DNA from: an uncultured candidatus Brocadiaceae bacterium | Lineage (GTDB): Bacteria > Planctomycetota > Brocadiia > SM23-32 | NCBI GenBank assembly: GCA_964421565.1 | Contig: CAYQXJ010000006.1 | Location: 154,679 to 218,678 of the forward strand | DNA: 64,000 bases | Direction of reading: 5' to 3' | Part shown: positions 19,431 to 59,483 of the stretch, piece by piece | Numbering within the stretch: the first letter of the stretch is position 1 | Layout: every line of letters begins with the position of its first letter | The notes under the pieces: generated by a model | The model's database searches: none | Told to the model about the DNA's origin: nothing | What the model saw: the letters and a program-made list of their open reading frames with translations, nothing else | Position numbers and translations under genes: made by a program

Positions 19431-19447
19431 CCGAGCGAGACGCCGCC

Positions 19448-20353: not shown

Positions 20354-21122
20354 GGCGCCGGGGCGAGTCCTGTCGGCACTCCGCGTCCCGATGCGCAGGG
20401 CCGCCGACGCCCTGCTCGATTGGTTCTACCCTCGCCACTGCCAGCACTGCGCAGCGCCCATCACGCGGCCGGGTGGGCGGGTCGTGTGCCGGAGCTGCTA
20501 TGACGAGCTGGCCGCATCGCGCATCGGGGGCAAGCTGTGTGCGCTTTGCGGCGTGCCGATGGAGGTTGCGCCCGGCTCGGGAACGTTCTGCCTCGACTGT
20601 CGGCTCGAAGAGCGCCACTTCGACCTGGCCCGCGCCATCTTCGCCTACCGGGGCCCGGCCATGTCGGTGCTGAAGAGCTACAAGTTCGGCGGCAACTTCC
20701 ACGTCGGGCCCCTGCTGCTGAAGGGGGCGATCGCGAGTGGATGGATGCCCTCCGACCTCTCCGCCCCGGAGGTCCTCGTTCCCGTACCACTGCACGCGCG
20801 CAGGCTGCGCGAACGCGGATACAACCAGTCATTGCTGCTCAGCAGGGGGCTGCGTCGGGTGTGGCATGCCGACCTGGCGGAAGGGGCCTTGCGCCGCACG
20901 CGATACACGCAGCAGCAGGCACGCCTCTCCATGCGACGGCGTTGGGACAACGTGCGCGGCGCCTTCGCGCTCAGGCGCGCCGAACACGTGCAGGGGCGCA
21001 GGGTATTGCTGGTTGACGATGTGATGACGACGGGCATGACGGCGGACGAGTGCGCGCGTGTGCTGAAGGACGCAGGAGCGGCCCGCGTGGAGGTCTTCAC
21101 CCTCTGCCGCACGTCACACTGA
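20343..21122 (+). CDS. ComF/GntX-family phosphoribosyltransferase-domain protein
   Basis: N-terminal Cys-rich zinc ribbon (CQHC...CRSC, CALC...CLDC) plus C-terminal PRTase motif [13 protein letters not shown]; overlaps end of preceding gene. Confidence 0.7.
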
Positions 21123-21437
21123 GCAAAGGGGCGTTGCGCCTTATCAGTGCCGCGGGTATACTGATGAACGAATTGCACCGAAGCTGCACCAAGCAATATG
21201 AAGTGAGTTGCCCGGAGCTTGACGACGAGGTGGTCGTGCTCATGCGGGAGGCCGGGGCCGTGGGGGCCAGATTGACCGGGGCCGGCTTCGGGGGGGTTTG
21301 CCATCGGGCTGCTGAAGCGCAAGCGCGCCGACGTGGTGAAACAGCATCTGGCGATGAACTTCTACCGCTCCAGATGGGCCGAAGCCGACCGATGCGTATT
21401 CGTGTTCCGTCCGGCGGGCGGGGCGTCCGTGACAGAG
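21123..21437 (+). pseudogene. C-terminal remnant of a GHMP-kinase (galactokinase-like) gene, frameshifted in a G7 homopolymer
   Basis: LMNELHRSCTKQYEVSCPELDDEVVVLMREAGAVGARLTGAGFGG matches the galactokinase C-terminal region (LMNESHxSxRDDYEVSCPELDxLV...GARMTGAGFGGC). The expected continuation AIGLLKRKRADVVKQHLAMNFYRS...VFVFRPAGGASVTEWV is in the +1 frame after the run cttcgggggggtttgcc near 21286-21296. No N-terminal two-thirds and no start codon are present, and the fragment begins right after the comF stop. Confidence 0.5.
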
Positions 21438-21485
21438 TGGGTCTGAGCGGTTTCGGGGCGCGGCCTACAGACCAAAAGGGGGCAT

Positions 21486-22331
21486 ATGATGCACACAGTC
21501 AACCAATTCGCATTTTACTTCGCTACGGCAATGCTGTTCGCCTTCGGCGCCATCGGCGCCATTGGCCAGGAGCAGTTCACCTACGATGACTACGCCCGCG
21601 TGCTCGCTCAACACGTCGATGACAGGGGCATGGTCGATTACCAGGCACTCAAGGCGAATCGCGAGCCGCTGGACCGTTTTGGCCGAAGCCTTGCAGGGCT
21701 TGAGCGGCATGAGTTCAGAAACTGGGAACCTGAGGAACAGATCGCCTTCTGGATCAATGCCTACAATGCGCTGACGTTGCAGGTGATCATCGACAACTAC
21801 CCGATCAAGGCGGGGTTCTTCGGCTCGTTGCGCTTTCCCAAGAACAGTATACGCCAGATATCGGGGGTGTGGGACGAGATCACTTTCCCCGTGATGGGAC
21901 GGCAGATGACGCTGGAGGACATAGAGCACGGCACCCTGCGCAAGGACTACGACGAGCCGCGCATCCACCTGGCCCTTGTCTGCGCGGCCATGGGCTGCCC
22001 GAAACTGCGTAATGAACCTTACGTGGGCGAGCGACTCGAAGAACAGCTCAACGACCAGGGGCGTCACTTCGTCCGCCAGCCGGACAAGTTCCGCATCGAC
22101 CGCCGCCGGGGCCGGGTTCACATCTCGCCCATTTTTAAGTGGTTTGGGGAGGACTTCGTGTCCCGGTATGCGCCATCGGCGGGTTTCCGGGGCCACGATC
22201 GCGAGGAGCGGGCCGTCCTGAGCTTCTTGAGCCGGTACCTGGAGGACGCCGACCGCCGCTACCTGCGCACGGAGGACTACGATCTGAAGTGGCTCGACTA
22301 CGACTGGTCGCTCAACGAGCAGCCCGAGTAG
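21486..22331 (+). CDS. DUF547-domain protein, probably secreted
   Basis: The N-terminal hydrophobic signal is MMHTVNQFAFYFATAMLFAFGAIGAIG. FWINAYNALTLQ, HLALVCAAMGCP and ISPIFKWF are typical of DUF547. The ATG is preceded by AAGGGGG. Confidence 0.65.
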   Translation: MMHTVNQFAFYFATAMLFAFGAIGAIGQEQFTYDDYARVLAQHVDDRGMVDYQALKANREPLDRFGRSLAGLERHEFRNWEPEEQIAFWINAYNALTLQVIIDNYPIKAGFFGSLRFPKNSIRQISGVWDEITFPVMGRQMTLEDIEHGTLRKDYDEPRIHLALVCAAMGCPKLRNEPYVGERLEEQLNDQGRHFVRQPDKFRIDRRRGRVHISPIFKWFGEDFVSRYAPSAGFRGHDREERAVLSFLSRYLEDADRRYLRTEDYDLKWLDYDWSLNEQPE

Positions 22332-44681: not shown

Positions 44682-47600
44682 TCAGCGCACGCGGGTCTTG
44701 CTGCGCTTGTGGTCGTACATCCTGCTGTCCGCCTCGGCCATCAGCTTCTCCAGGGGCACGGGGTTGTCCGGCGGGCAGGTGACCACGCCGCGGCTGAGGG
44801 AGAGCCTGTAGTCGCGGCCGGCTGCCTCGTTGTGCTGCTCGAGGGCGCGCGAGAGCCGCTCCAGTATCTCGGCGGCTTCGTCCTGGTCGGCCTCCAGCGC
44901 AAGCACCGCGAACTCATCGCCTCCGATGCGGCCGAGAATGTCCGATTCACGGAAGGTGGATCGCAGGACCTCGGCCGTGCCGATCAGGGCGCGGTCGCCC
45001 TCCTTGTGGCCGAATGTGTCGTTTATCCACTTCATGTCGTCCACGTCAACGAAGATGATGAGGGCTTCGTTCGCTGTTCGGCGGGCGACCTTGAGTTGCT
45101 GGTTCGCCAGGTGGAAGAACCCGCGCCGGTTGTTCAGCCCCGTCAGGGAATCGACCAGGGACAGGTTGATCAGTTGCTCGCGCAGGGCGACGTGATCCGT
45201 GATATCCCGTGCGATGGCCGAGATGCCCGTTACGCGCCCGTTCTCGCCCTTGATCGGCGACATGGTAAGGGAGACGTTGATCCTGGCGCCGCCCCGCGTC
45301 ACGTTAACGAACTCGTGTTGTTGCAGGCGCTTGCCGCTGGCCACGTCTTCGATGATCTGGCAGAGCTCGGCCCGTCTCTCCAAGGGTGCCAGCACGCTCA
45401 TGTGGGTGCCCTGCACCTCGTCGGAGCAGTAACCGTAGACGCGCTCGGCGCCAGGGTTCCAACGCACGATGCGCCCCTCCACGGTGGCGTCAATGATGGC
45501 GTCGTCGGTCGACTCTACCACGGCGCCCCACTGAGCGCGGTTCTCTTCGAGGCTTCTGCGCTCGGTGATGTCGAGAGCAACGTCGACAGCGCCTTGCACT
45601 TCGCCGTCGGGACCGTGGACGGGATAGCCGCGCACTGCCCAGATTCTGCCGTCGTCGGACATCATCTCGGTTTGTTGGGGCTCGCCGGTCTCCATGGCGC
45701 GCACCACGGGGCAGTCGGCGCAGGGCTGCTCGCTGTTGTGCCACACCCCATGGCAGGGGCGTCCTATGATTTCCTCCAGCGCCACGCCAGCCTGTTGTGC
45801 GGCGGCCCTGTTCGCCCACTGAACTTTGAGGTCAGCGTCGCAGTAGATGACGATCTCTTCCATGGCGTCCAGAACGGCATCCTTTTCATGCTCGATGCGG
45901 CTTATCTCCTCCTGGGCCTTTCTCTGCGAGGTGAGGTCGCGAACGACAACGAGGATGCTTGTTACACGCTCCCCCTCGACGATGGGTATCCTGCGACTTT
46001 CGAACGTCACCGTCTGTCCCTGAACTGTCACAGTGACGACGTCCTTCTGCGGCTTGCCGGTGCTGAACATGCGCTTAAGGCCGCTCTCGCGCTCTTCCGG
46101 CAAAAAGGGGAAGGCTTCACGGAAGGGGGTGCCGACCAATCTGTGCTTAACGCCCAACTGTTGGCACCACTGGCGCAGTGCCCGGTTGGCGATTCGTATG
46201 CGCAGGTTGCGGTCGAGCACGAGGACGGCGTCGCTCAAGGCGTCGAGCGTTCTGCGGTAGCGTTCCTTCGACTTGCGCAGAGCGCGTTCGGCTCGCTGCT
46301 GGTCGGTGATGTCGCGGTCCACGCAGTACAGGTGGTATGTATTGCCCACGCGCACACTGGTTGCCGACCACGCGTAGGTGTTCTCGCGTCCATCCGGGCG
46401 CCTCCACGATGCCGTGCCCGTGCAGGGCAGGCCCTGTTTGAGATGTTCCCGTGTGCGCTGGCGCTCCTGGGGTCCGGCGTCGAACGAGATCAGTTCGTTC
46501 AGGTCCTCGGCTTGCTCTAACTCGCTGCGGCTGTAGCCGGACATCTCGACGAAGCGGTCGTTGCAGAAGATCAGTCTGCGGGCGTTGGTTTCCGGATCCC
46601 ATCGGCAGATGCCAATGCCGTCGAGTGCGGTCTCCGCGAGCAACCGGAACCGCTGTTCGCTGCGTCGCAGTCGCTTCTCGGCCCGGCGCTGTTCGGTGAT
46701 GTCGGTTATGAAGCCTTCCAGCGCCACCAGGTCGCCCCTGTCGTTGCGGACCCCGCGTCCTTGCTCCCACACCCAGCGCGGTTCGCCGTTTGCCCGCGTG
46801 ATGCGGTACGTCATGCGGAACGGGCGGTCGTCCTGCAGCGCCATCTCGACCTCGCGCCAGACGGACTCCCGGTCCTCCGGCACGATCAGTTCGCCATAGG
46901 CGACCTCGCGGTTGTCCACGATCTGGCGGGGCCGGTAGCCGGTAATCTCCAGGCATCCCTCGCTCATGAACTCCATGGTCCAGTGGCGATCTGTGCGGCA
47001 ACGGTAGGCGGCGCCGGGCAGGTTGCTCAGCAGCGTGGAGAGGGCGCGTTCCCTTTCCCTGAGTTGGCGCTCGGCCTGCTTGCGGGCTGTAACATCGCGT
47101 GCGATGACGGAGACGCCGATGATTCCGCCGTCTGCCCCGCGCAACGGCGTCATGGACATGGAGACCTCGATCGGGACCCGGTCACGCGAAAGGTGCACCG
47201 TCTCCTGCTGGCGCACCAGTTCTCCACTCGCCACGCTCAGAACAAGCTCCTTGAGCGAGTTCTGTTCGGCAGGCGGGCAGAGGCACCAGAAAGGCTGCCC
47301 CTGCATCTGGCCTGGGGTATAGCCATAGATGCGTTCCGCTCCGGCATTCCAACTCACGATGTGGCCTTCGGCCGTTAGCCCCACCACGGCGTCGTCGGAG
47401 GCCATGCTGAGCGAGGCCCACTGGCTGAGCATCTGCTCGGCGCGGCGCTGGTCCTCCGTCCAGCGGCCGACGGCCAGCAGCGCCACCGCATCCTCGCGAC
47501 CATTGCAGATGGGCACCTTCGTCCAGCGTTGCAGCCGATGGCGGTCCGTAGCGGGGTCGTAGCGCGTCATCTCCGTCACTACAGGCTCACCGCCCTTGAG

Positions 47601-48512
47601 CACCTGCTCGTCTTCCCTGCGGAACAGTTGGGCATGCTGCGGGTCGAACACGTCCAGGTCGGTCTTGCCCACGAGCTGTTGGGGTTCGAGGCAAAGGTCC
47701 TTCGCAAAGCGCTCGTTGGCGAACGTGAAGCGCAGGTCCCTGTTTTTCAAGAACACCCGGTCGCCGATGTGGCGCAGCACGGACCTGAGCTCAGCTTCTG
47801 TGCTGCCGAGGGCCTCCTCGGCTTGCCTGTGTTCGGTAATGTCCGTCACCATGCCCAGCAGACCCGCCACCTCGCCTTCTTCGTCGATGACGGGTGTCTT
47901 GACCACTTCCAGCACACGTTCGCCGCGCGGCGTGCGCAGCACGCTCAGGAAGGTGAGGGATTCTTGCGTGCCCAGCACGCGCTGATCTTCCGCCAGATAG
48001 CGCTCTGCCAGTTCCGCGCCGAACAGATCTGCATCCGTCTGCTCCGATATCTGTTCGGCTGTTGTGTCGAGCAGCTCTGCGAAGGCCTGGTTGGCGGTGA
48101 CGTAGACGGATTTCTGATCTTTAAAGAATATGCCACGAGAGACGTTCTCCAGCAGCAGGCGGTTCTTGCGTTCGGTCTCTTCAAGGGCGGCTCGCGAGGC
48201 GTTCTGCAGCAACGAATGGGCAAGAAATGCCCAGAAGACGGGGATCAGGACCTGGGTGGTGTCCGTGAACGTATCGACATTGGCCCAGTTGCCCAGCCAC
48301 TGGAGAGCGTCCCCTCCCGCCTTCAGCCCCATCAGGGCAAGCACGGTGGCGAGTAGGAGGCGCGTGTCCGTGGGGAACCCGCGTCGCCTGCCCAACAGGA
48401 CTATTGCCAGGGCGACAAGGGCCGCCGTCAGCGCAAGAGCGCATGTGGTGCCGACCAGCCACCTCATGGGTGAGCCCCCCTCCGCGGCTGGCCCCCAAAC
48501 GTCCGCCAGCAC
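44682..48512 (-). CDS. Multi-PAS sensory diguanylate cyclase (membrane-anchored, C-terminal GGDEF domain)
   Basis: There are two N-terminal TM helices and at least 6 PAS/PAC-like segments. The C-terminal GGDEF domain carries SLTGLNNRRGF...RIGGDEFAVL (the GGDEF signature). The length is 1276 aa. Confidence 0.8.
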   Translation of the reverse strand: MLADVWGPAAEGGSPMRWLVGTTCALALTAALVALAIVLLGRRRGFPTDTRLLLATVLALMGLKAGGDALQWLGNWANVDTFTDTTQVLIPVFWAFLAHSLLQNASRAALEETERKNRLLLENVSRGIFFKDQKSVYVTANQAFAELLDTTAEQISEQTDADLFGAELAERYLAEDQRVLGTQESLTFLSVLRTPRGERVLEVVKTPVIDEEGEVAGLLGMVTDITEHRQAEEALGSTEAELRSVLRHIGDRVFLKNRDLRFTFANERFAKDLCLEPQQLVGKTDLDVFDPQHAQLFRREDEQVLKGGEPVVTEMTRYDPATDRHRLQRWTKVPICNGREDAVALLAVGRWTEDQRRAEQMLSQWASLSMASDDAVVGLTAEGHIVSWNAGAERIYGYTPGQMQGQPFWCLCPPAEQNSLKELVLSVASGELVRQQETVHLSRDRVPIEVSMSMTPLRGADGGIIGVSVIARDVTARKQAERQLRERERALSTLLSNLPGAAYRCRTDRHWTMEFMSEGCLEITGYRPRQIVDNREVAYGELIVPEDRESVWREVEMALQDDRPFRMTYRITRANGEPRWVWEQGRGVRNDRGDLVALEGFITDITEQRRAEKRLRRSEQRFRLLAETALDGIGICRWDPETNARRLIFCNDRFVEMSGYSRSELEQAEDLNELISFDAGPQERQRTREHLKQGLPCTGTASWRRPDGRENTYAWSATSVRVGNTYHLYCVDRDITDQQRAERALRKSKERYRRTLDALSDAVLVLDRNLRIRIANRALRQWCQQLGVKHRLVGTPFREAFPFLPEERESGLKRMFSTGKPQKDVVTVTVQGQTVTFESRRIPIVEGERVTSILVVVRDLTSQRKAQEEISRIEHEKDAVLDAMEEIVIYCDADLKVQWANRAAAQQAGVALEEIIGRPCHGVWHNSEQPCADCPVVRAMETGEPQQTEMMSDDGRIWAVRGYPVHGPDGEVQGAVDVALDITERRSLEENRAQWGAVVESTDDAIIDATVEGRIVRWNPGAERVYGYCSDEVQGTHMSVLAPLERRAELCQIIEDVASGKRLQQHEFVNVTRGGARINVSLTMSPIKGENGRVTGISAIARDITDHVALREQLINLSLVDSLTGLNNRRGFFHLANQQLKVARRTANEALIIFVDVDDMKWINDTFGHKEGDRALIGTAEVLRSTFRESDILGRIGGDEFAVLALEADQDEAAEILERLSRALEQHNEAAGRDYRLSLSRGVVTCPPDNPVPLEKLMAEADSRMYDHKRSKTRVR

Positions 48513-49184
48513 CAGCAGGCCAGCAACACGGTGGCCCCCAGGTAGCAGGCGTGCTCCAGAAGGTTCAGCACGTCGGCAACCATTACCGCCTCGAGATTGG
48601 TCGCCAGCCAGCTTAGGACGAGCAGCGAGTACGCCATCAGAAAAAGGCGCAGTCCTGCCACCCGGCGGAGCCTATGACGGCTGAGGGCCAGAAAAACGCC
48701 CGTGCCGACGCCCAACAGCAAGGTTAGCATCTCGTTCTGCGACAGCATGGCAAACCGCTAAGATTGCACGATCTTCTTGAATGACAACGCTTTAGTGCGA
48801 CCGGAGGGTGCACGGCGCGCCTCCGGTGCCAGCGTCACCCAAGGGGGTTGCAAGCCGCGTGCCCGCATTGACGGCGCGGCAGTCGCCGGCGAGGAATGCC
48901 CCACGCGCTCCTGCAGAACTATGGGCGCTGCTATGGCGTGGGCAGTGCCCAAAAACCGGGCTGTCCAGGCCGCTGGCAAGCGGCAGCTCCTTACGCTTTT
49001 GCCGTGGCGCAATGCCCGGCCTGCAGCCGCCTCGGCGTCAAGGAAGGCCGTCATGGGGTGAAAAAAGAGCAACAGTCAGCATTCAGATTGCGCCTTGAAA
49101 CCTGTTTGGGATTTGCTATGCTAATCAGAACTGGGAGGATGTACACCATGTCGTTAGCGATTCCGAGCGAGGGGGGAAGTATTG

Positions 49185-50018
49185 ATGGCCCGAGTGGAAG
49201 AAGCCCTGCGCGATTTCGTAGATCGGGAAACTCGCCACGCCGTCTCCGACGTTATGGCGGACCTGCCCGAGCAACTGCGCCAGTTTCGTCGTGAGCTGCG
49301 TGATGTCCACAGAGCGCTCAACCAACTGAGCAGTGAAGTGCGTGGCCTCGCTGCTGCCGGTGCCTTCCGCAGCCCTGGCGGCCCGCAGGATGCCGAATCA
49401 ATGGCGTTTACCGCCGAAGGTCTGAAGTCGCTGCGAGAGCAGTTTGACCTGACCCAGCAGGAACTTGCCCAACTGTTGCAGGTCTCGCCCGTGACCGTCA
49501 CCGCGTGGGAGACCGGCAAGTCTTGCCCGCGTCGTTCGAATCTGGCGCAGATTGCCGCCATGCGCGAAGCCGACCAGGAGGAGATCGACGAGGCACTCGG
49601 CAGGCAACCCGTGCCCGACATCTCCGGCATAGACGTCAAGCGGCTGCGCCGGCGTCTCGGGCTGACGCAGAACGCACTCGCCGAACTGATCGGCGTATCG
49701 GCGGCGGCCGTTACCTCCTGGGAAACCGGTAAGACTATTCCCAGTCGGGACAATCGCCGCGCGCTTGCCGAACTCAGCGAGAAGCCGCTCAGCGAGGTGG
49801 AGGAGGAACTGACGCGCTCGGGCATCATGCTGCCGCATGAAGAGGCCATGTCGCCGGAGGAAATCCGCCAGATCCGCACCGCCGCCGGCCTCTCCCAGCG
49901 AGAGCTCGCCAAGGAGATCGGCGTCTCGGTCAACTCTGTCTCCAACTGGGAGACGGGCCGCACTGCGCCGCGTCGCGCCAGCGTTAAAGAACTGCTGCGC
50001 CTGCGCGAACAATCCTGA
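49185..50018 (+). CDS. Protein with three tandem XRE/Cro-C1-type helix-turn-helix domains
   Basis: There are three internal repeats of LTQxELAxLLxVSxxTVxxWETGKxxPxRxN. They are LTQQELAQLLQVSPVTVTAWETGKSCPRRSN, LTQNALAELIGVSAAAVTSWETGKTIPSRDN and LSQRELAKEIGVSVNSVSNWETGRTAPRRAS. A GAGGGGGGAAG Shine-Dalgarno sequence precedes the ATG at 49185. Confidence 0.7.
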   Translation: MARVEEALRDFVDRETRHAVSDVMADLPEQLRQFRRELRDVHRALNQLSSEVRGLAAAGAFRSPGGPQDAESMAFTAEGLKSLREQFDLTQQELAQLLQVSPVTVTAWETGKSCPRRSNLAQIAAMREADQEEIDEALGRQPVPDISGIDVKRLRRRLGLTQNALAELIGVSAAAVTSWETGKTIPSRDNRRALAELSEKPLSEVEEELTRSGIMLPHEEAMSPEEIRQIRTAAGLSQRELAKEIGVSVNSVSNWETGRTAPRRASVKELLRLREQS

Positions 50019-50144
50019 AGCAAGACGAGTTCGGCCCGACCGCCACGGGCGGCAGGAGCCTCAAGCAGGCCACTGCGCGCTTGCGGCACGGGGCCGCCCG
50101 CCCGTATACTGCGCATTGTCCCTGCCCATGCTTACTCGCGTCCT

Positions 50145-50220
50145 GAGGGCGTAGCTCAGCCGGCAGAGCAACGGACTTTTAATCCGTAGGTCGTGGGTTC
50201 GATCCCCACCGCCCTCACCA
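50145..50220 (+). tRNA. tRNA-Lys (anticodon TTT)
   Basis: The cloverleaf has an acceptor stem GAGGGCG/CGCCCTC, D arm GCTCAGCCGGCAGAGC and anticodon stem-loop ACGGA-CTTTTAA-TCCGT. Anticodon TTT is flanked by T and A. The T arm is GTGGGTTCGATCCCCAC. The discriminator is A, and an encoded CCA follows. Confidence 0.85.
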
Positions 50221-50537
50221 TATGCCACGCCACCGGGCCTGCTGCTCCGCAGCACAGCGAAGCGCCCCGAAGCGCGCCTCGCAACCGTGTCACTGCCCCG
50301 CCCGTCTGGTGCAACCATGCGGTCCCGTCCCATCGCAGAGGGTGTCAGAGCGTCGCGCGAGCAGCACGAGTACAGCCCAATCACAAATGCCGATTCCAAC
50401 CAAGCCCGGCTGTGGCCAGGACATGGGGAGAATGTTGAAGCGTCACGGTGCTTGTGCTATAAAGCCCCTCAGGAGAATAGCTTGCGATCCGACGTCTGCG
50501 CCTGTCGAGGCGTCCGGGCCTGGACCAATGGGACACG

Positions 50538-52433
50538 ATGATCCGCCCCCATCTCATCACCAATCGGGTGCGCCGAGCCGCACTCCGGCCGATTGTGCGG
50601 AAGGTGAACGATCTGGAAGCGCAGACGGCGCGCCTCTCCGACGCTGAACTGCGCCGGTCGGCGCCGCGGCTCAGGGAGTGTCTGAGCCGGGGGGCGGAGT
50701 TGGACGGGCTGATGCCCGAGGCTTTCGCCCTGGTGCGGGAGGCGGCGAAGCGCCAGATTGGCGAACGGCCCTTTGACGTGCAGGTGATGGGCGGCGTTGC
50801 CATGCACCACGGCTGGATCGCCGAGATGCAGACGGGCGAGGGCAAGACGCTGGCCGCCACACTGCCCGCCTTCCTGAATGCGCTGCCGGGCCGCGGCGTT
50901 CATGTAGTCACGGTGAACGACTACTTGGCCAGCCGCGACGCCGAGTGGATGGGCAGCATCTACCGCGCCCTGGGGCTCAGCGTGGGCTGCCTGGTGCACG
51001 ACGTGGGACCGCGCGAGCGTGCAGCGACCTACCGCGCAGATATTACCTACGGCACGAACAAGGAGTTTGCCTTCGATTACCTGCGCGACCAGCTTCGCGC
51101 GCATGCCGCGCGCAACGCTCCGGCCGTCGGCGTGTTCGAACGCCATGCGATGCGCACCAACGCGGGTGGTGGCAAGGTGCAGCGGGGGCATCACTTCGCC
51201 ATCGTCGATGAGGTCGATAGCATTCTGATCGACGAGGCGCGCGTGCCGTTGATCATCAGCGAGCGCGAAGGCGAGGTCTCGCCATGGGCTTCGGCATACA
51301 CTGAGGCGCGCGAGCTGGCGCTAAGGCTGCGGGAAGGGCAGGACTATATTCTGCACGAGGAGGAACGGGGCGTGCAGATGACCGTGCGGGGGATTGAGAG
51401 GGTGCGACAGGCTGCAGCGGGGGGGCGTCCCGGTCGTCCGTTCGAGCACCTGGTGGAACAGGCGCTGCGAGCGGAGCACCTGTTCCAGCGCGATCGTGAA
51501 TACCTGGTGGTGGACGACCACATCTGTATCGTTGACGAGTTCACCGGCCGCCAGATGCCCGATCGCTCGTGGTCACTCGGGCAGCACCAGGCCATCGAGG
51601 CGAAGGAGGGCGTGCCGGTAACCGACGAGAATCGCACCCTGGCATCGGTTACCTTCCAGCGCTACTTCAAGCTCTACGAGAAGCTGGCCGGCATGACGGG
51701 CACGGCCCGCGAATCGTCGGCGGAGTTCAGCAAGGTCTTCGGCCTGCCAGTGGCGGCCGTCCCGACCAACCGGCCGATGCGTCGGCGGCGGATGCCCTGT
51801 CAGGTCTTCGCTACATGGGCGGACAAGTACCAGGCCGTGGTCGAGCGCGTGCGAGAGCTTCACCGGCAAGGGCGCCCCGTCCTCGTGGGTACTCGTTCCG
51901 TACGCCGCAGCGAGGAGCTGAGCAGGCGGTTGAGCGAATGCGGTATAGAGCACAACGTGCTCAACGCGCGCAATCACGCCGCCGAGGCACGGGTCATCGC
52001 GGAGGCCGGGCAGCCCGGCCGCGTCACGATTGCCACGAACCTGGCGGGCCGAGGGGTGGATGTACTGCTCGGACAGGGGGTGGCGCAGGTGGGCGGGCTC
52101 CACGTGCTGGGAACTGAACTGCACGAGGCAAGCCGCATCGACCGCCAGCTCGGGGGGCGAGCCGGCCGCCAGGGCGAGCCCGGCAGTTACGAGTTCTTCC
52201 TGTCACTGGAGGACGATATACTGGGCCGGTGGAGCAAGACGCTGGGAAGTTGGCTGCGGTGCCGAGCGCAGAGGGCAAAGGGGGGCCGCGTCAGCCGGCT
52301 TCACCTGCCCTTCTTTCGGCTGGCCCAGCGGGGCATCGAGCGACGTCACCTGCGGATCCGGGTAGACCTGCTCGAGTACGACGAGCGCCTGGAGGAGATG
52401 AAAGGGAGCCTCGGGGCGCCCGCGTGGGGCTGA
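50538..52433 (+). CDS. SecA-family ATPase lacking the C-terminal scaffold, wing and tail domains (SecA2-like, truncated)
   Basis: The N-terminus FDVQVMGGVAMHHGWIAEMQTGEGKTLAATLPAFLNALPGRGVHVVTVNDYLASRDAEWMG matches SecA NBD1 nearly position for position. DEVDSILIDEA is the DEAD motif. NBD2 (LVGTRSV...TIATNLAGRGVD) and the start of the helical scaffold (SLEDDILGRW...LLEYDERL) follow. The protein then ends at 631 aa, where canonical SecA continues for another ~270 aa. Confidence 0.75.
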   Translation: MIRPHLITNRVRRAALRPIVRKVNDLEAQTARLSDAELRRSAPRLRECLSRGAELDGLMPEAFALVREAAKRQIGERPFDVQVMGGVAMHHGWIAEMQTGEGKTLAATLPAFLNALPGRGVHVVTVNDYLASRDAEWMGSIYRALGLSVGCLVHDVGPRERAATYRADITYGTNKEFAFDYLRDQLRAHAARNAPAVGVFERHAMRTNAGGGKVQRGHHFAIVDEVDSILIDEARVPLIISEREGEVSPWASAYTEARELALRLREGQDYILHEEERGVQMTVRGIERVRQAAAGGRPGRPFEHLVEQALRAEHLFQRDREYLVVDDHICIVDEFTGRQMPDRSWSLGQHQAIEAKEGVPVTDENRTLASVTFQRYFKLYEKLAGMTGTARESSAEFSKVFGLPVAAVPTNRPMRRRRMPCQVFATWADKYQAVVERVRELHRQGRPVLVGTRSVRRSEELSRRLSECGIEHNVLNARNHAAEARVIAEAGQPGRVTIATNLAGRGVDVLLGQGVAQVGGLHVLGTELHEASRIDRQLGGRAGRQGEPGSYEFFLSLEDDILGRWSKTLGSWLRCRAQRAKGGRVSRLHLPFFRLAQRGIERRHLRIRVDLLEYDERLEEMKGSLGAPAWG

Positions 52434-52454
52434 TGGCGCTGCAACAGGGGGGCT

Positions 52455-54635
52455 TCATATGAGGAAGCGCCGATGCAGCATGCGGCGCAGCCGCAGCCAT
52501 ATGCGCCGCCCAATGGTCTGCTCGCCCACGATGAACCTCACTGTGCCTGCGCTGCCGACTGGCAAGGAGCGGGCGTCAGGACCAAGGACGACATCCACTC
52601 TGTACCAGGGCTCCAGGGTTCGCGCGCCCTGGGGGGCCTGAGGGTCCAGCAAAATGGGGCCTCCGGCGGCGCTTGTCAAGGGGGCAGGGGGCGCCTGATG
52701 GGTTGCCGAGGGGTGTATCCGCTCGATGGTGCCCGTGAATATGCGGGCGGGCAGGGCTCGGAATCTGATGCGCGTTCCTCTCACGTCCTCACTCTGAAGC
52801 GCGGCGATATCCGCCGTCTCAACCGCTGCCGTCACGCGGGTCGCCTCCAGGGAGGCGACGGCAAGCACCGGCTCCCCCATGCGCAGGAAGCGTCCGTGAA
52901 CGCGATCGAGGTCGGGCGCGATGACCCTGCCGTCGAACGGCGCATGGATCGCCATGGCGTCCTGGCGCCGCTGCGTGGTTTGGAGGTCCTGCTGCAGGCG
53001 CGACAACCGTTCGCGTTCGACAGTGGCCTGCGTGGGATTGCCCGTTGCCTCGAGCCTGCGGAGTCTCGCTCGCGACTCCTGCACTGCCAGTTCCATGCGA
53101 CGCACTCCATGGTCCAGCAGTTCGTTGCTCAGAGTTGCCAGCAACTGGCCGGCCTCGACCTGCTGGCCATTGCTAACACGCACGTCGGTCAGAAAGCCAG
53201 GCCATTCGGCGCGGAGCATCGCTTGCTCGGCAGGCTCCAGCGCACAGGGCGCCCGCACGGCCGAGTCGATGGGCACCGCTCCGAGCAGCAGCACCACCGC
53301 CGCAACGAGACCTGTGAACACACCGATTGCCCGAGCGCGCACTGGCCGGGTCACCTTGTCGATAAAGATGTACTTGAGCAACTTACTAAATGGATTCAGA
53401 ATCCAGAGTATAGCGACCAGCACAGCCAGGGCTACGCCAAGGGCGAAGAACTTTGAGGCGATCATCAGCAGGATGCCAGTGACTATGAAGCAGCGATAGA
53501 GCGTGGCCAGCACGCCGTAACACAGGAACCACACCTTCTCCCGGGACAAGTCAGTGTTGAGCGCAACGCGTTCACCCACAAGATAGCGCTTGAACAGGTA
53601 CTTCACGTAATCCGTTGAGCGCTGCCTCAGATTGGGGATCTCAATGAGATCGGCCAGGATGTAATAGGCATCGTAGCGCAGCAGCGGATTGCCGTTGAAC
53701 AGCAATGCTGACACGCTGGCGATGAAGATTATGTTGTAGAGTATCGTGCGGATGGTGCCCGGCTCCAGCAGCAGCCAGCCGAAGACTGCCAACGAAGCGA
53801 TGAATAGCTCGACCATCATGCCCGCCGCGCCGACCAGCACCTTCGGCCACTTGCGCGGGAAAGCCCACACCGGCGTCGTATCTACGTAGAGCACGGGCAT
53901 GAAGATCAGGAACATCACGCCCATGCGGTGCACCTCCGCCCCATAGTGCCGGGCGGCGAACGCATGCCCGAATTCGTGACATCCCTTTACCAGCACGAAC
54001 GCCAGGTAGAGATACACAAGGTTGCCCGGGGCCAGGATGCCGTTCGCCCGCGAAGCAAACGCCTCGACGTTGTAGAAGAACGCGAAGAGCGCCGCCCCGA
54101 GCGTCAGCAGCCAGACCACGAACACCTTGCGCGAGAAGACCCACCGAACGTAGGGCAGGGTCGCCCGAAGGAAGCGCTCCGGGTCGATGAGCGGAATGGT
54201 CAGGTACATGAAACTGCTCAGCTTCTGTTTCACGCGCTGCCGACGCTTCTTGCCGGCCCGCTCGACCGTCCAGCGCGCTTCCTCGTCGCCGCTGCTGACG
54301 GTCAGGTTCGCGTGCCGCAGCATGAAGACGAACCCGACCAGGTCGCGGAAGGAAGGCGCCCGGCTGCCGTAAGTCGCCTTCAGCCGGTCGTGGATGGTGC
54401 CAAGGCTTGTCTCGCCGTTGAGCTGTTCCAGTATCTCGCGCTCAACTCTTCCGACACGAAAGTACTGGAGGGTGACGGGGTCCTGCAGCACGAAGTGGAC
54501 CTCACCCCCGAACCGCTGCGGCACGATGTCAGCATCAGGCCGTAGCCGTGGGGTTCGCGTGCGCAAGTGGGGCACGCGGTCCTCAAACTCCAGCTCTGCC
54601 GAAAGGTCGTATTCCGGCGTTTTCGGTCCGAGCAC
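52455..54635 (-). CDS. Fusion protein combining an N-terminal PqqD/RRE-like domain, a peptidase M50 (site-2 protease) membrane domain and a C-terminal HlyD-like periplasmic adaptor domain
   Basis: The N-terminal ~100 aa (VHFVLQDPVTLQYFRVGRVEREILEQLNGETSLGTIHDRL) resemble PqqD-like peptide-binding domains, tentatively. The polytopic region carries HEFGHAFAARHYG (an HExxH zinc motif of M50) and a downstream N..P...D motif. The C-terminal third has HlyD-like coiled-coil and beta-barrel segments (LEATGNPTQATVERERLSRLQQDL...). Confidence 0.65.
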   Translation of the reverse strand: MLGPKTPEYDLSAELEFEDRVPHLRTRTPRLRPDADIVPQRFGGEVHFVLQDPVTLQYFRVGRVEREILEQLNGETSLGTIHDRLKATYGSRAPSFRDLVGFVFMLRHANLTVSSGDEEARWTVERAGKKRRQRVKQKLSSFMYLTIPLIDPERFLRATLPYVRWVFSRKVFVVWLLTLGAALFAFFYNVEAFASRANGILAPGNLVYLYLAFVLVKGCHEFGHAFAARHYGAEVHRMGVMFLIFMPVLYVDTTPVWAFPRKWPKVLVGAAGMMVELFIASLAVFGWLLLEPGTIRTILYNIIFIASVSALLFNGNPLLRYDAYYILADLIEIPNLRQRSTDYVKYLFKRYLVGERVALNTDLSREKVWFLCYGVLATLYRCFIVTGILLMIASKFFALGVALAVLVAILWILNPFSKLLKYIFIDKVTRPVRARAIGVFTGLVAAVVLLLGAVPIDSAVRAPCALEPAEQAMLRAEWPGFLTDVRVSNGQQVEAGQLLATLSNELLDHGVRRMELAVQESRARLRRLEATGNPTQATVERERLSRLQQDLQTTQRRQDAMAIHAPFDGRVIAPDLDRVHGRFLRMGEPVLAVASLEATRVTAAVETADIAALQSEDVRGTRIRFRALPARIFTGTIERIHPSATHQAPPAPLTSAAGGPILLDPQAPQGARTLEPWYRVDVVLGPDARSLPVGSAGTVRFIVGEQTIGRRIWLRLRRMLHRRFLI

Positions 54636-54650: not shown

Positions 54651-56573
54651 TTACCACCACACGTGCAACCGCACCCAGTCGACCAGTTGTCGCGTTAGCA
54701 CCCATGTTACGTGTCGTCGGCCCACGCGCACCCTGGCCGCCCCCTCCATTCCCGGGCGCAGCGGCCGGCCACTGGCCGGGATTATCGCTTCTGCAATGTA
54801 GTAACTGGCCGCGTCCTGAGTCTCCGGCAACGGGCGCACGCCACCCACTTTGAATTGTATCTCTCGGCCGGGCTGCGCCTTGGTGGTGAAGGTCCCAGGT
54901 TGGCCGGGCTCCACGTACGTCACATCGCCCTGAGCCACCCGCATCTCTAACAGCAGGCGGTCCAGCGGCGCCACCTCCACCAGTTGTTCGCCCATTTGCA
55001 CGGGCCGGCCGATATCCTGGCGCAGGTCGCCGGCTATCACGATGCCCTCAACACGGGCGCGCAGCGTGGTGCGCGCCAGGCGGTCCTCCAGGAGCTGAAC
55101 CTCTGCGTCGAGCGCCTGCAGCCGCGCGCGGGCCTCGGCGTACTGAGCCGTTTTGCCTTCGTCCAGCAGCACCCGTGCTTGCGCCTGTTGGCTGCTGCGG
55201 TTGCTGAGCGCCTCCCGCAGGCGCAACTCCAGCTCGTCTCGCTCGAACTCGACCAGCACCTGGCCCGGTTCCACCGTGTCGCCCGGGCGAACCGGCGCCG
55301 CTTCGATCGTCGCATCGAAGGGCGCGGCATAGACGTACAGTTCCGCCGGCGCCAGACGGCAACTGCCACTCACGCTGAAATGCACCCTTCCGAACACGCC
55401 GAACAGCACCAGCGCGGCGAGCACGACGGCCGCGACCTTGCGCCATGGGTGTTCACGCCCGAAGAGCCACTTGCCGGCGCTCGCCAGCCCGTCAGCGACT
55501 CGCTTCGGCACACCGCGATCATTCTCCAGCGCCAGCCCGAGCACCGGGCCGACCTGCCCGGCCAGAACGTGCACCACCTGCCGTTTCTCTTCGCTGAATG
55601 CCGACTCGCCGAACTCGAACGTCCATACCCCCACCAGCCTCTCATCGCGGCGCAGCGGCACGCTGTGTACGGCCTGCGAGCCGCCGCTTCGCGCCAGCCG
55701 CTCGTGCTGCGGGCAGCGGGTCAACTGGCGGGCGCGTTCCTGATCCGGCGCACCGGCATCGAAGTGGCCCGTTTCGCCACTGACCTGGACCTCGGCCTGC
55801 GCCGCCTGCAGCAATCGGGCGGTATTTGTGCGCCGATCTACGATATCCTCGCCGGAGATTGCGACTACCCGCACCTTGCGGCGGCTGACGAACCCGAGAG
55901 ACACGCGCGCGGCCCCGAGTTGCGAGCGCGCTTTGTCAACCAAGACCTGGGCCATCTGAAGTGCAAGGTCGAACGCGAGCGCCTCTGCCAGGATATCCCA
56001 TGCGCTGCTGAGCGCCCCATAGAGCGCCTGGAAGTGCTCTGCGCGGCTGCTGGCAACTCGCAATGCGCCGAACTGAGCGAGAAGGCTTAGCAGCGCGACG
56101 CCGGCGTCCGAGAGGGCAGGGGCGCCTTCACCTACGACGATGCTCACACAGCCCATGGCGTCGGCCGTAGCCTCCGCCGGGAAGCCGACGGCGACATACG
56201 CCTCGCCTGTCAGCAGCTCGCCTGCCGGCTCGGGGACCCTACGGTAGCACACGATGCGCTGCTGCGCGGTGTCGGCTGCCAGCTCCTTCAACCTCTGCAA
56301 CCACTGGTGGGCCGCTTCGCCGCTGACTTTCAGCAGCAGCTCTGCGGCCAGCGTGAACTCGCCCTCGTCGCCCGGCAGCCAGTAAGCCGCGTACGTCGCG
56401 TCTGCGACGCTTGCCATGGCTTCCAGCAACTCGCGGACGAACTGCTCGGGCTCCACAGCGGCCTCGGACCGTTCGCGGAGCCTCTCGATAAGCGCCAGCA
56501 GCCTCATCCGCGCCGGCTCGGGCTCCGCCGGGGTCCCGGGGCGCTCGTGACCGTGTGGGTCCTGCCGGCTCAC
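54651..56573 (-). CDS. GAF-domain / HlyD-like membrane fusion protein
   Basis: The N-terminal ~330 aa look like GAF-like alpha/beta regions. A single TM helix (VAAVVLAALVLFGVFG) follows. The C-terminus is a HlyD-type adaptor with coiled-coil and lipoyl-like beta-barrel segments (PGQVLVEFERDELELRLREA...RARVEGIVIAGD). Confidence 0.65.
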   Translation of the reverse strand: MSRQDPHGHERPGTPAEPEPARMRLLALIERLRERSEAAVEPEQFVRELLEAMASVADATYAAYWLPGDEGEFTLAAELLLKVSGEAAHQWLQRLKELAADTAQQRIVCYRRVPEPAGELLTGEAYVAVGFPAEATADAMGCVSIVVGEGAPALSDAGVALLSLLAQFGALRVASSRAEHFQALYGALSSAWDILAEALAFDLALQMAQVLVDKARSQLGAARVSLGFVSRRKVRVVAISGEDIVDRRTNTARLLQAAQAEVQVSGETGHFDAGAPDQERARQLTRCPQHERLARSGGSQAVHSVPLRRDERLVGVWTFEFGESAFSEEKRQVVHVLAGQVGPVLGLALENDRGVPKRVADGLASAGKWLFGREHPWRKVAAVVLAALVLFGVFGRVHFSVSGSCRLAPAELYVYAAPFDATIEAAPVRPGDTVEPGQVLVEFERDELELRLREALSNRSSQQAQARVLLDEGKTAQYAEARARLQALDAEVQLLEDRLARTTLRARVEGIVIAGDLRQDIGRPVQMGEQLVEVAPLDRLLLEMRVAQGDVTYVEPGQPGTFTTKAQPGREIQFKVGGVRPLPETQDAASYYIAEAIIPASGRPLRPGMEGAARVRVGRRHVTWVLTRQLVDWVRLHVWW

Positions 56574-56611: not shown

Positions 56612-56956
56612 CTACGTGCCCGCCTGCCCCGGGCTGGGGCCAGTGCTGGGCGCCTGCTGGCGCTCTGGCAGTTCGATGACCCCGCGGGCATCCTCGTACC
56701 GTTTCACCAGGTTGCCTAGAGTGATGGCCAATCGCTTGGCCGAGGGGTAGGAGAGTATGACGCGGTTGCTCACCTGGATGTGGACTTCACCCTCTTCGTT
56801 CGGCCCTGCGTTGAAGCCGAAGTTCAGCACAACCTCCTCCGGCGTGCTCGCCACCACGGTGATGTTCGCGTAGTCGAGGTCCACATCCGGGGCATGCAGG
56901 CGCACCTGCCGCTCCTGCTCGGGTCCGCGGGCTTTCTGGTCTTCACTGGTTTGCAT
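56612..56956 (-). CDS. DUF3467-family protein
   Basis: DLDYANITVVASTPEEVVLNFG...VSNRVILSYPSAKRLAITLGNLVKRYEDARGVIELPE matches the DUF3467 pattern. For comparison, the family shows Y(S/A)N...EF(V/I)LDF and ...AKRL...L.....YE. A GGAGG Shine-Dalgarno sequence precedes the ATG at 56956. Confidence 0.65.
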   Translation of the reverse strand: MQTSEDQKARGPEQERQVRLHAPDVDLDYANITVVASTPEEVVLNFGFNAGPNEEGEVHIQVSNRVILSYPSAKRLAITLGNLVKRYEDARGVIELPERQQAPSTGPSPGQAGT

Positions 56957-56976: not shown

Positions 56977-57804
56977 TCAGTCGGTCAGTTGGAACGTCAG
57001 TGTTCCGAAGGTGCCCGCAACGACCGACCCGTCGGGATTCGGCAGGCGCAGCTTCACGCGGTAGGTGCCGCTGGCGGGGTCGGCGACGCTGTCGGCCACC
57101 ACCACGGTGCACTTCAGGCGCTGCTCGGGCCAGCTCTCCAGGGCCAGTGTGGCCTGTGCGCCGGGCTCGATCCGTCCGGCGGTCTCCACGGGCACGTCGG
57201 CGACGACATAGAGGGGGTCCAGCGTCACCAGGCTGAGCACGGGTTGGAGCGGCTCGGCGGCCTCGCCCTCACGGCGGGCTATGCGGAGCACCTGCGCGGC
57301 GTAGGGAGCGCGGATGACCGTCTGCTCCAGGCGCACCCGGTCTCGCTCGGCCGTCAGCTCCGCAATGCGCAGCTCATTCTGCGCGTTCTGGATCGAAAGT
57401 TCGGCCAGGTCCATGTCCAGCTTTGCCCGTTCCAGGTCCGCCTGGCTCGAGACATCTTTCTCGAACAAGTCCAACTCGCGTTCGTACTCCTTCTGCAGCA
57501 GGGTGTGCTGTGCCACGGCGGCCTGGATGCGGTGGCGAGCCGATTCGATATGTGCCATGCTCACGCGCAGTTGGGCCCGCAGCAGGGCATCGTTCAGCCG
57601 TACCAGCTCCTGCCGTTTCTCCACCGGTTCACCTTCTTCGACAAGCACTTCCGTGACTATCCTGCCGGTCTCAGCGGCCACGGCTACTTCGCGATAGGGG
57701 ACCGTCTTGGCGCTTACGGTCACCTCGGCGGCGGCGATGCCTGGCGCAAGCATCAGGACGGCAATGGCGGCCAGCAGGCCGCAGCGGCACTGTTCTCTCG
57801 CCAT
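56977..57804 (-). CDS. HlyD-family periplasmic adaptor (membrane fusion protein)
   Basis: The signal/TM segment is CGLLAAIAVLMLAPGIAAA. A coiled-coil hairpin (LRAQLRVSMAHIESARHRIQ...ELRIAELTAERDRVRLEQTVIRAPYAAQV) and the C-terminal beta domains follow. The ATG at 57804 is preceded by GAGGTGG. Confidence 0.75.
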   Translation of the reverse strand: MAREQCRCGLLAAIAVLMLAPGIAAAEVTVSAKTVPYREVAVAAETGRIVTEVLVEEGEPVEKRQELVRLNDALLRAQLRVSMAHIESARHRIQAAVAQHTLLQKEYERELDLFEKDVSSQADLERAKLDMDLAELSIQNAQNELRIAELTAERDRVRLEQTVIRAPYAAQVLRIARREGEAAEPLQPVLSLVTLDPLYVVADVPVETAGRIEPGAQATLALESWPEQRLKCTVVVADSVADPASGTYRVKLRLPNPDGSVVAGTFGTLTFQLTD

Positions 57805-58010: not shown

Positions 58011-58463
58011 TCACCCGAAGAGCGAGTAGATTCCCGTCTCCGCAAGCGCGTCGAAGCCCGCATACAGGGCATTGCTGCGGAACACGATGGGCTTCACTAT
58101 CTCGTAAGCGCCGATTCCGTACCCTCCGAAAGCGGAGGCGGCGAAGTCCCCGACGATCTTGACCTTACCGACTGTGCTGCGCCATACGAATCCGTCGGTT
58201 AGCACGAGGTTGAACAGGTCGTAGCCGCCCGGCAACATCGTGTTGACGCCGCCAGCGGTCGCGCCAGCCACCAGCAGGGAGTTGTTGAAGTTTCCGCCGA
58301 CCTTCAGCGATTCAACGCTCCCACTCAGGTAGGTGTCCGCATCGTCACCGCTGCCGCCCGGCAACAGGTCCGCCCCCAGGTTGGCGCCCGCGACAATGCG
58401 TGCGCCGTAGCAGTCGGCCTGTGTTTTGATCTTACCGATGTTGCGCGCCACGATGGTGGCCAT
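58011..58463 (-). CDS. Hypothetical Gly-rich protein of 150 aa, possibly the C-terminal remnant of a larger secreted protein
   Basis: The ORF has strong GC3 bias typical of coding sequence in this genome. It has no convincing Shine-Dalgarno sequence or signal peptide. It sits head-to-head with the truncated TolC fragment. Confidence 0.35.
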   Translation of the reverse strand: MATIVARNIGKIKTQADCYGARIVAGANLGADLLPGGSGDDADTYLSGSVESLKVGGNFNNSLLVAGATAGGVNTMLPGGYDLFNLVLTDGFVWRSTVGKVKIVGDFAASAFGGYGIGAYEIVKPIVFRSNALYAGFDALAETGIYSLFG

Positions 58464-58598
58464 CGTTTCGAACGTTGGCGTTGCCGGCGGGAAGGGCCAG
58501 AGCGAGAAGGTGCCGATCGCACCGGTTTTGAGCATGTCCAGGTCTTCGAGGATTCGCTGGAGCTGGCGCGTCGGCAACTGCGGGACACGCGCGAGCGT

Positions 58599-59483
58599 GT
58601 GAGGGTGGGCAAGATCGCCGAAGGAGAGGTGGCGGCCGCCGAGGCGGAGTTGGCCCGCCGGCGCGAGCAACTGATCAACGCGCGCAGTGACGCCGAGAAG
58701 GCGCGACTGCGACTTTTGCGACTCACCAACCCGCTGTTGGAGGGATTCTGGAGCCGCCAACTGGAACTTCGCGACGAACCGAAGATGCTCGCGCAGCTGG
58801 AAGCCAGCGCCGAGTTGCGCCATCCTCTGGAGGACCCGGTGACGCACGTGCAACTGGCACTGCGCATGCGCCCGGACCTGAATGAGGCACGACTCCAAAT
58901 CAAGCGGGGCGACCTGGAACTGGTCAAGACGCGCAACGGCCTGCTGCCGCGCCTCGACTTCGTGCTGCAGTTGGGCAAGAGCGGGCTGGCGGACGCGTTC
59001 GCGGAGAGCATCGGCGACATCACGCAGGACCATTACGACGCCCTGGCCGGTCTGAACTTCGAGTACCCGCCCCTCAACCGCGCAGCCCGCGCGCGCCACC
59101 GGGCCGCCGTGTTCACTCGCAGCCAGGCCGCCGAGGCTGTGGCGAATCTGGAGCAGTTGGTCTCGCTGGATGTGCGCACGGCGTACGTTGAAGTCGAGAG
59201 GGCGCTGGCGCAAGTGGCCGCCACGGCCGCCACGCGGCGCTTCGGCGAGCAGAACCTCGCCGCAGAGCAGGAGAAGTTTCGAGTGGGGCGGACCAGCTCG
59301 TTCCTGGTCGCCCAGGCGCAACGCGACCTGGTCGCCAGCCGCATTGCGCAGGTCCAGGCCGTAGTCAACTACATGCAGGCGCTCGTCGAGTTCTATCGGC
59401 TGGAAGGTTCACTGCTCGAACGCCGGGGCATCAAGACGCCGGGCGCTGAACCGGTCGACCCCAACCTGCCGGCTGGCGTTTAG
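58599..59483 (+). pseudogene. TolC-like outer-membrane efflux protein, C-terminal half only (N-terminally truncated)
   Basis: 294 aa with typical TolC second-repeat helices (AEAELARRREQLINARSDAEKARLRLL..., LDVRTAYVEVERALAQ..., QAVVNYMQALVEFYRLEG). The upstream in-frame sequence back to the stop at 58212 is Arg-rich and not TolC-like. No other plus-strand ORF encodes the missing first repeat. Confidence 0.55.

Follow-up and report, generated by a model that had tools for sequence, protein, structure and literature searches.

A short SecA-type ATPase with a conserved end point and its linkage to export genes in an uncultured planctomycete

In the usual view, SecA is a motor that operates with the SecY channel alone, and canonical SecA uses the IRA1/two-helix finger, the helical wing domain (HWD) and the C-terminal tail for regulating itself and for pushing its substrate into SecY. 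The subject of this work is a gene for a short SecA-like ATPase, which lies in a 64,000-nucleotide stretch of DNA (hereafter the window; positions 154,679 to 218,678 of contig CAYQXJ010000006.1) from an uncultured candidatus Brocadiaceae bacterium of the phylum Planctomycetota. The closest described proteins are those termed 'secondary SecA_DEAD domain proteins' and reported by Kamneva, Poudel and Ward in PLoS One in 2015, which have no SecA_SW domain or a fragment of it only, coexist with canonical SecA in the complete genomes analysed and are phylogenetically apart from it (PMC4452313). Their genes adjoin those for Peptidase_M50-HlyD, GAF-HlyD and HlyD/biotin-lipoyl proteins, sometimes also OEP, and it was proposed from those other genomes that the secondary SecA_DEAD protein supplies the ATPase of a type-I-like module, the M50-HlyD protein there being described as weakly M50-like and suggested to be a pore (PMC4452313). 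The family and its neighbourhood are, then, already known by comparative genomics. On the evidence of sequence comparison, the gene in the window is real and functional, coding for a minimal SecA-type motor that is tied to the neighbouring export genes.

The short SecA and its conserved end point

The gene and the recognisable parts of its product are the following, invariance being given for 28 family members.

50538..52433, plus strand: short SecA-like ATPase, 631 aa (ATG at 50538, TGA ending 52433), with nucleotide-binding domain 1 (NBD1), preprotein cross-linking domain (PPXD), nucleotide-binding domain 2 (NBD2), joint and scaffold-helix stub
50826..50852, plus strand: Walker A or motif I, MQTGEGKTL, residues 97-105 (E96, M97 and G100-L105 invariant)
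51207..51239, plus strand: DEAD-type Walker B, DEVDSILIDEA, residues 224-234 (D224, E225, D227, S228 and L230-E233 invariant)
51291..51599, plus strand: PPXD, residues 252-354 (Pfam SecA_PP_bind)
51774..52205, plus strand: NBD2 (Pfam P-loop_SecA), including TNLAGRGVD (residues 500-508) and motif VI, GRAGRQG (residues 540-546)
52296..52412, plus strand: long scaffold helix, of which a stub is kept at residues 587-625 (AlphaFold secondary structure and alignment to canonical SecA)
52389..52430, plus strand: conserved extreme C-terminus, LEEMKGSLGAPAWG (alignment of 49 short members; the consensus of the closest subgroup is LEEMKGxLGVPxWG followed by the stop)

The start at 50538 is the earliest start codon available to the open reading frame (ORF). 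Pfam searches with the 631-aa protein returned SecA_DEAD (PF07517) at residues 12-397 (E 2.8e-115), SecA_PP_bind (PF01043) at residues 252-354 (E 1.6e-26, profile positions 4-110 of 110) and P-loop_SecA (PF21090) from residue 413 (E 6.5e-58), and found neither SecA_SW (PF07516) nor a SEC-C domain. The motor is complete, since NBD1, the PPXD and NBD2 are all present; the parts without counterpart are the HWD, the two-helix finger/IRA1 and the C-terminal linker with its zinc finger. The SecA-like motifs pointed out in the first-pass annotation of this DNA (FDVQ..., DEVDSILIDEA and TNLAGRGVD) are indeed there, with a similarity far beyond chance: Walker A stands in the context FDVQVMGG...MQTGEGKTL, and neither Walker A nor the DEAD box, TNxAGRGxD or motif VI varies within the family set, the invariant residues of NBD2 being T500, N501, A503-G506, D508, G540, R541 and R544-G546. 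Alignment to solved SecA structures is continuous over the motor, matching residues 23-606 of Bacillus subtilis SecA and extending as far as residue 652 of Thermotoga maritima SecA.

Beyond NBD2, the helix stub matches the segment AQRKVE..IRKQLLEYDD of canonical SecA, with F593, Q597, E601, R608, L611 and D615 invariant. A confident AlphaFold model made from the 28 family members (pLDDT 85.7, pTM 0.82) ends in NBD2, short joint helices, a single helix at residues 587-625 and then six disordered residues, 626-631; according to this model and to the alignment, the stop falls ~70 residues past NBD2 and ~39 residues, or about three-quarters, along the long scaffold helix. The earlier description of a protein ending right after NBD2 was correct, if slightly loose in its wording, given that about three-quarters of the long scaffold helix are kept.

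Both the short form and its end point are kept across relatives. Among 5.8 billion proteins searched, relatives with 51-71% identity and lengths of 626-654 aa were found, none of which has PF07516; examples bearing taxonomic labels are from Planctomycetota, Brocadiaceae and Phycisphaerae. When aligned by MAFFT together with four canonical SecAs, short relatives end in the same column in 47 cases out of 49, a column that corresponds to residue 618 of an 839-aa canonical SecA. Two more distant short SecAs of verrucomicrobial type (41-44% identity), located via the neighbouring gene family on a 2-Mb contig (L092) and in a metagenome-assembled genome of Limisphaerales (L093), stop within ~3 residues of this common end point. 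In comparisons with three orthologs, the gene as a whole has a ratio of nonsynonymous to synonymous substitution rates (dN/dS) of 0.22-0.26 and its tail (codons 560-631) one of 0.23-0.31, values which indicate that the tail, too, is under purifying selection. In the library of representatives at 50% identity, the 72-aa tail matched only four fragments, full-length short SecAs probably being represented in that library by other cluster members. When the C-terminal ~240 aa of four canonical SecAs were compared by tblastn with the whole window, the best E value was 0.36, at an unrelated position, and nothing was found past 52433; the remnants of the helical scaffold domain (HSD) and HWD that the first-pass annotation had proposed to look for in downstream frames occur neither there nor elsewhere in the window. 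The stop codon of the short secA is separated by 21 bp from the end of a convergent gene for an M50-HlyD fusion. All this points to a truncation that is ancestral and selected.

The short proteins also stand apart from canonical SecA as a group. In a neighbour-joining tree based on 523 columns of the motor region, the 49 short proteins are monophyletic with respect to 25 canonical SecAs in 100 of 100 bootstraps; the canonical set includes two planctomycete proteins, L015 (Isosphaeraceae, 1227 aa) and L050 (at least 928 aa), and the sequences of Kamneva et al. (2015) were not in the set. The window protein misses the cut-offs of the NCBIfam equivalog models for SecA (NF009538, 723.5 vs 814; TIGR00963, 687.8 vs 800) and those of all four SecA2 models (TIGR04221, 496 vs 725; TIGR03714, 571 vs 930; TIGR04397, 662 vs 1085; NF012136, 463 vs 1100), so that 'SecA2-like', the label it had been given earlier, is wrong if taken to mean membership. 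Nor is it likely to be the housekeeping SecA. The window holds no second SecA in its 64 kb, and no SecY or Asp domains occur among the called neighbours within 10 kb at 10 loci. A scan of genome contigs with the family alignment picked up generic SecA motifs and gave 80 loci, the ten inspected being canonical SecAs of other organisms; the accessions of named planctomycete SecAs pointed to no assembly in common. The annotation label 'preprotein translocase subunit SecA' is misleading for such genes, and pipelines could score a housekeeping secA as present from the short paralog alone.

Linkage with export genes

The genes next to the short secA in the window are listed below, with the evidence for each in brackets.

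52455..54635, minus strand: M50-HlyD fusion, 726 aa (Pfam, NCBIfam, ortholog alignment, hydropathy and family search)
54651..56573, minus strand: GAF-HlyD protein, 640 aa (profile searches and hydropathy)
56612..56956, minus strand: soluble DUF3467 protein, 114 aa, its gene lying between those for GAF-HlyD and HlyD (Pfam, E 1.2e-15)
56977..57804, minus strand: third periplasmic adaptor, of RND_mfp/HlyD type, 275 aa (NCBIfam TIGR01730, E 5.6e-40, above cut-off)
58605..59483, plus strand: TolC-like outer-membrane factor, 292 aa, C-terminal ~55% (Pfam OEP, E 1.8e-23)

A short SecA gene convergent with genes for M50-HlyD, GAF-HlyD, in some cases DUF3467, and HlyD was found in six of eight independent loci, down to 55% identity, and the flank upstream of the short secA is different in each of these loci. 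Ten M50-HlyD homologs lie on contigs identical in bp size to contigs carrying short-SecA homologs, one of them being locus L007, where the linkage was seen directly. In the distant loci L092 and L093, the genes for OEP, HlyD, GAF-HlyD, M50-HlyD and short SecA are co-directional, and those for M50-HlyD and short SecA overlap by 4 bp in L093. Judging from this gene order, the export genes and the short secA form one operon in distant relatives, and they are convergent here, the secA of the window lying on the strand opposite to the genes for M50-HlyD, GAF-HlyD, DUF3467 and HlyD. Of the earlier suggestion that the protein is a minimal motor dedicated to the adjacent export operon, the conserved linkage bears out the association; the arrangement as a single operon applies to distant relatives alone. 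No ABC, RND or MFS transporter is encoded in the clusters examined.

The composition of the clusters varies to some extent. OEP is full-length in L005, L007, L092 and L093 and truncated in the window. DUF3467 is kept in all the close planctomycete clusters, occupying the same position in L001-L006, L090 and L091, and is absent from L007, L092 and L093; it was located in relatives at the following coordinates.

L004, 16125-16463: DUF3467 gene
L005, 16165-16512: DUF3467 gene
L090, 16123-16503: DUF3467 gene
L091, 16494-16850: DUF3467 gene

The LGVPxWG tail of the short SecA accompanies DUF3467 in 7 of 7 loci having DUF3467, and three linked loci without DUF3467 have another tail, a correlation that is confounded by phylogeny. 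Next to the OEP gene of L007, a giant ORF called at 9432 aa runs off the locus (18944-21920, minus strand); none was seen in the window. Giant proteins are typical cargo of type I secretion. Genes for extracytoplasmic function (ECF) sigma factors lie near the co-directional operon of L092 (14258-15416, minus strand), with a Cupin_7 protein beside it, and of L093 (18845-19468, plus strand), which may be due to chance.

The M50-HlyD fusion combines a cytoplasmic N-terminal domain similar to PqqD and the RiPP recognition element (RRE; RiPPs are ribosomally synthesized and post-translationally modified peptides), a polytopic M50 metalloprotease and a periplasmic domain of the HlyD adaptor type. 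The PqqD-like domain spans residues 49-111 (E 6.8e-4, full model length), and PF05402 is precomputed in many homologs. The M50 region has six to seven hydrophobic segments, with HEFGH at residue 220 together with NGNPLLRYDAYY, and its HExxH and NxxPxxxxD motifs are kept in four orthologs. We favour the GTG start at 54635 over the 678-aa gene call of Logan because the first 48 residues are conserved in orthologs. The family has at least 3045 matches, which at about 715-730 aa are very uniform in length. Through its first 411 aa the fusion matches 'daptide biosynthesis intramembrane metalloprotease' of NCBIfam (6.9e-49, below cut-off), and it is related also to YydH/LiaK, both being NCBIfam models for intramembrane proteases of RiPP maturation; the connection with daptides is through the name of the former model, no open-access paper on daptides and a metalloprotease having been found.

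The GAF-HlyD protein has a cytoplasmic N-terminal region of ~380 aa with a GAF domain, one transmembrane helix (380-398) and a periplasmic adaptor domain. The DUF3467 protein gave no match to PDB sequences with phmmer, and its AlphaFold model has a pLDDT of 57; the idea of a SecB-like chaperone was found unsupported, the probability in hhalign being 0.1 against E. coli SecB. Hydropathy indicates a membrane anchor or signal sequence at the N-terminus of the third adaptor, and the membrane topology of the cluster proteins, deduced in the same way, fits an assembly extending from the cytoplasm to the outer membrane. The TolC-like ORF covers positions 154-407 of 414 in the TolC model, aligns solely to a part (residues 223-517) of its ortholog in L005, which has 527 aa, and is without signal peptide. 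Close to it, a 174-aa ORF (58011-58535, minus strand) resembles residues 270-407 of a 479-aa protein found at the equivalent position of L004; from the look of the two together, the far end of the cluster has been locally rearranged or has decayed.

On the other flank, a tRNA-Lys gene (anticodon TTT) lies at 50145-50220 on the plus strand, 317 bp upstream of the short secA start, and three independent Logan assemblies of the locus break 346-373 bp upstream of that start, inside or beside the tRNA gene. A 1276-aa protein with ~7 PAS domains and a C-terminal GGDEF diguanylate cyclase is encoded 2 kb upstream of the short secA (44682-48512, minus strand), and its gene is not kept beside the cluster in other loci. 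Between it and the tRNA lies a putative 320-aa ORF (49154-50116, minus strand), for which no match was found in Pfam or NCBIfam even with permissive thresholds. Scanning 49900-52700, upstream and downstream of the gene, for promoters and terminators gave no sites, an uninformative outcome that is expected for a planctomycete-like genome of 66% G+C.

A possible export machine and the rival explanations

In mechanistic terms, the question is what a SecA motor would do among such genes. We lean towards the view that the short SecA is the cytoplasmic ATPase, or motor, of a type-I-like machine for envelope export and processing, which has no ABC transporter and is formed by the products of the linked genes. 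Such a machine would be trans-envelope and Sec-independent, with the short SecA as its cytoplasmic energy source. Its inner-membrane part would be the M50 metalloprotease, having the RRE-like peptide-binding domain on the cytoplasmic side and the HlyD adaptor on the periplasmic side, and it would be completed by the GAF-sensor/HlyD adaptor, the third adaptor and the TolC-like outer-membrane duct. The RRE-like domain and the SecA clamp might take up an unfolded peptide or protein, which ATP cycles of SecA would pass to the membrane component; the M50 site would then cut off a leader or otherwise process the substrate, and the adaptors and TolC would carry it outward. Overall, this would be like a peptidase-containing ABC exporter in which the ABC ATPase has been swapped for a SecA motor. 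The data above show the intact and conserved motor, its conserved truncation point, purifying selection, monophyly, the linkage of the genes, intact protease motifs and the membrane topology; that these parts interact physically, which way transport runs, what kind of substrate is carried and that SecYEG plays no part are inferred.

Several features of the proteins bear on the proposal. Retention of the PPXD clamp argues for a polypeptide substrate, and a push into SecY of the canonical kind is made less likely by the absence of the two-helix finger and HWD. The combination of intact protease motifs with an RRE-like domain suggests recognition and cleavage of a leader. In the E. coli truncation series, intrinsic and lipid-stimulated ATPase activities were highest for fragments ending at ~619-632 (PMC5456053); by analogy, a natural protein of the size of the short SecA would be expected to have an active, de-repressed ATPase, which its loss of IRA1 would make constitutive. 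A broader formulation, which we advance tentatively and would not yet rely upon, is that the cluster constitutes a distinct secretion system of diderms, independent of both ABC transporters and SecYEG, whose SecA-type motor drives the leader-dependent passage of peptides or proteins through both membranes and their intramembrane processing, to which DUF3467 was added in planctomycetes and in which the LGVPxWG tail serves as a docking motif for a partner.

This evidence needs to be set against a number of points that weigh in the opposite direction. The position of secA on the opposite strand excludes its co-transcription with the export genes in this genome, the TolC-like gene of the window is probably a fragment, and no substrate gene was identified in the clusters. 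Two loci, L008 and L089, are exceptions to the linkage, since their short SecAs, which form a subgroup with the tail '...RRLAGQHVE', have no such neighbours within 10 kb. To our knowledge, no M50 protease functions as a protein-conducting channel. The structures closest to the AlphaFold model in Foldseek are of SecY-engaged SecA (6itc_A, substrate-engaged SecA-SecY, TM 0.86; 5eul_A, TM 0.84), and this likeness to the SecY-bound conformation makes use of SecYEG by the short SecA possible. Finally, the literature yielded no experimental follow-up on secondary SecA_DEAD proteins, or on clusters of short SecA with M50, HlyD and GAF genes.

One alternative, for which the likeness to SecY-engaged SecA speaks, is that the short SecA is an accessory Sec motor, as in 'SecA2-only' systems: it would dock on the housekeeping SecYEG alone or as a heterodimer with canonical SecA and would give particular proteins, which might be parts or clients of the adjacent HlyD/TolC system, a route of their own. 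The protein does retain the PPXD as a clamp, its N-terminal helix and the two NBDs, Gram-positive SecA2 proteins are shortened as well, and the end of the short SecA maps about to the E. coli fragments N643-N669, reported as critical for functional interaction with SecYEG-SecDF-YajC (PMC5456053). However, the same series regained translocation capability only from about N831 (PMC5456053), and the short SecA has neither the two-helix finger and HWD nor the second half of the HSD, whereas the structurally characterised SecA2 proteins among the structure-library matches are all 778-786 aa long. Scores below every curated cut-off for SecA and SecA2 also stand against it, as does the operon shared with M50-HlyD in L093, where the overlap of stop and start argues for a dedicated partner. 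We consider a role as accessory Sec motor unlikely.

Another explanation would place the emphasis on proteolysis: the short SecA, instead of driving secretion, could be an ATP-driven unfoldase or chaperone that brings a cytoplasmic or membrane substrate to the M50 protease, of site-2 type. The process would be one of signalling or of regulated proteolysis within the membrane; the GAF domain would do the sensing, and the HlyD and TolC proteins would form a scaffold or only let the cleaved peptide out. Regulated intramembrane proteolysis is the classical role of M50 proteases, and the intact catalytic motifs, the GAF sensor domain and the ECF sigma-factor genes in L092 and L093, with Cupin_7 beside the former, would be in keeping with this role, as would re-analysed expression data in which the GAF gene is expressed and the other cluster genes are silent (PMC4452313). 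Yet ECF sigma genes abound in these phyla, the cluster has no conserved anti-sigma-like substrate, and three HlyD adaptors with a TolC-like gene make up a consistent envelope-spanning set that pure signalling would hardly explain; we regard this explanation as slightly less likely still. The last candidate, which the first-pass annotation had also considered, is a decaying or recently truncated secA duplicate produced by a premature stop or frameshift: nothing speaks for such a pseudogene except that the protein is ~270 aa shorter than typical SecA and lacks Pfam SecA_SW, and it is ruled out, its chances being negligible, by an end point shared in a monophyletic family across dozens of lineages down to 41% identity, the conserved C-terminal motif of the subfamily, invariant catalytic motifs, a dN/dS of ~0.25 that includes the tail, the lack of any canonical C-terminal match below E 0.3 in the window and the conserved convergent gene 21 bp past the stop.

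Comparison with known systems

The significance of the short SecA lies in its being a widespread and selected derivative of SecA that has lost all the elements by which SecY is engaged and pushed into. If it is indeed the motor of the export machine outlined above, SecA would have been re-used for a second, mechanistically different export route spanning the envelope, and the cluster would define a secretion system of new architecture, found in Planctomycetes, Verrucomicrobia and further phyla. Experiments could start from the conserved end point, from a protease that looks active by its motifs and carries a domain of RRE type, or from the operon in which genes overlap.

With respect to canonical SecA, the short protein has ~50-57% identity over the motor and shares NBD1, PPXD, NBD2, the joint, ~39 residues of the scaffold helix and all the ATPase motifs. 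It differs in lacking the remainder of the HSD (to which the two-helix finger/IRA1 belongs), as well as the HWD and the C-terminal linker; the zinc tail CPCGSGKKYKKCC, present in nine of ten canonical SecA tails inspected, has no equivalent in it. Engineered truncations of E. coli SecA such as SecA-N68 (5k9t), which was recovered by both sequence search and Foldseek, are similar in consisting of the DEAD motor with the PPXD and in ending in or just before the scaffold helix. In contrast to these laboratory fragments, which do not carry out translocation, the short SecA is natural and selected, with a C-terminal motif and partner genes of its own.

The Gram-positive SecA2 proteins (those of mycobacteria, of the accessory SecA2/SecY2 system, and of Listeria, Bacillus and C. 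difficile) offer a parallel, as they are shortened second paralogs that work beside SecA1 in specialised export. They are ~760-790 aa long, however, and keep the HSD and two-helix finger; moreover, unlike the situation in SecA2/SecY2 systems, no SecY2 or Asp genes accompany the short SecA, the partners of which belong to diderm envelopes and are of HlyD/TolC type. Type I secretion systems and the peptidase-containing ABC exporters of bacteriocins and RiPPs are comparable in their gene sets, which combine HlyD-type proteins, a TolC-family duct, a protease coupled to export and a cytoplasmic ATPase. The present cluster departs from them in having a SecA-type DEAD motor as its ATPase and no ABC transporter, an M50 intramembrane metalloprotease fused to an adaptor instead of a C39 peptidase domain, and three different adaptors where type I systems have one.

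The closest correspondence is with the secondary SecA_DEAD proteins, which likewise have SecA_DEAD, PPXD and NBD2 without SecA_SW, are linked to the same genes and come from the same phylum; the short SecAs, too, form a clade apart from canonical SecAs, planctomycete ones included. The gene in the window is a member of this family from a metagenome-assembled planctomycete, with nothing essential to distinguish it. To the account given in those parts of the 2015 paper that are drawn upon here, our analysis adds the exact and conserved truncation point with its C-terminal motif, the intact catalytic motifs and PqqD/RRE-like N-terminal domain of the M50 fusion, and the finding that, in this lineage, secA is inverted with respect to the operon; it adds also the DUF3467 gene, the term 'DUF3467' having 0 occurrences in the main text of that paper.

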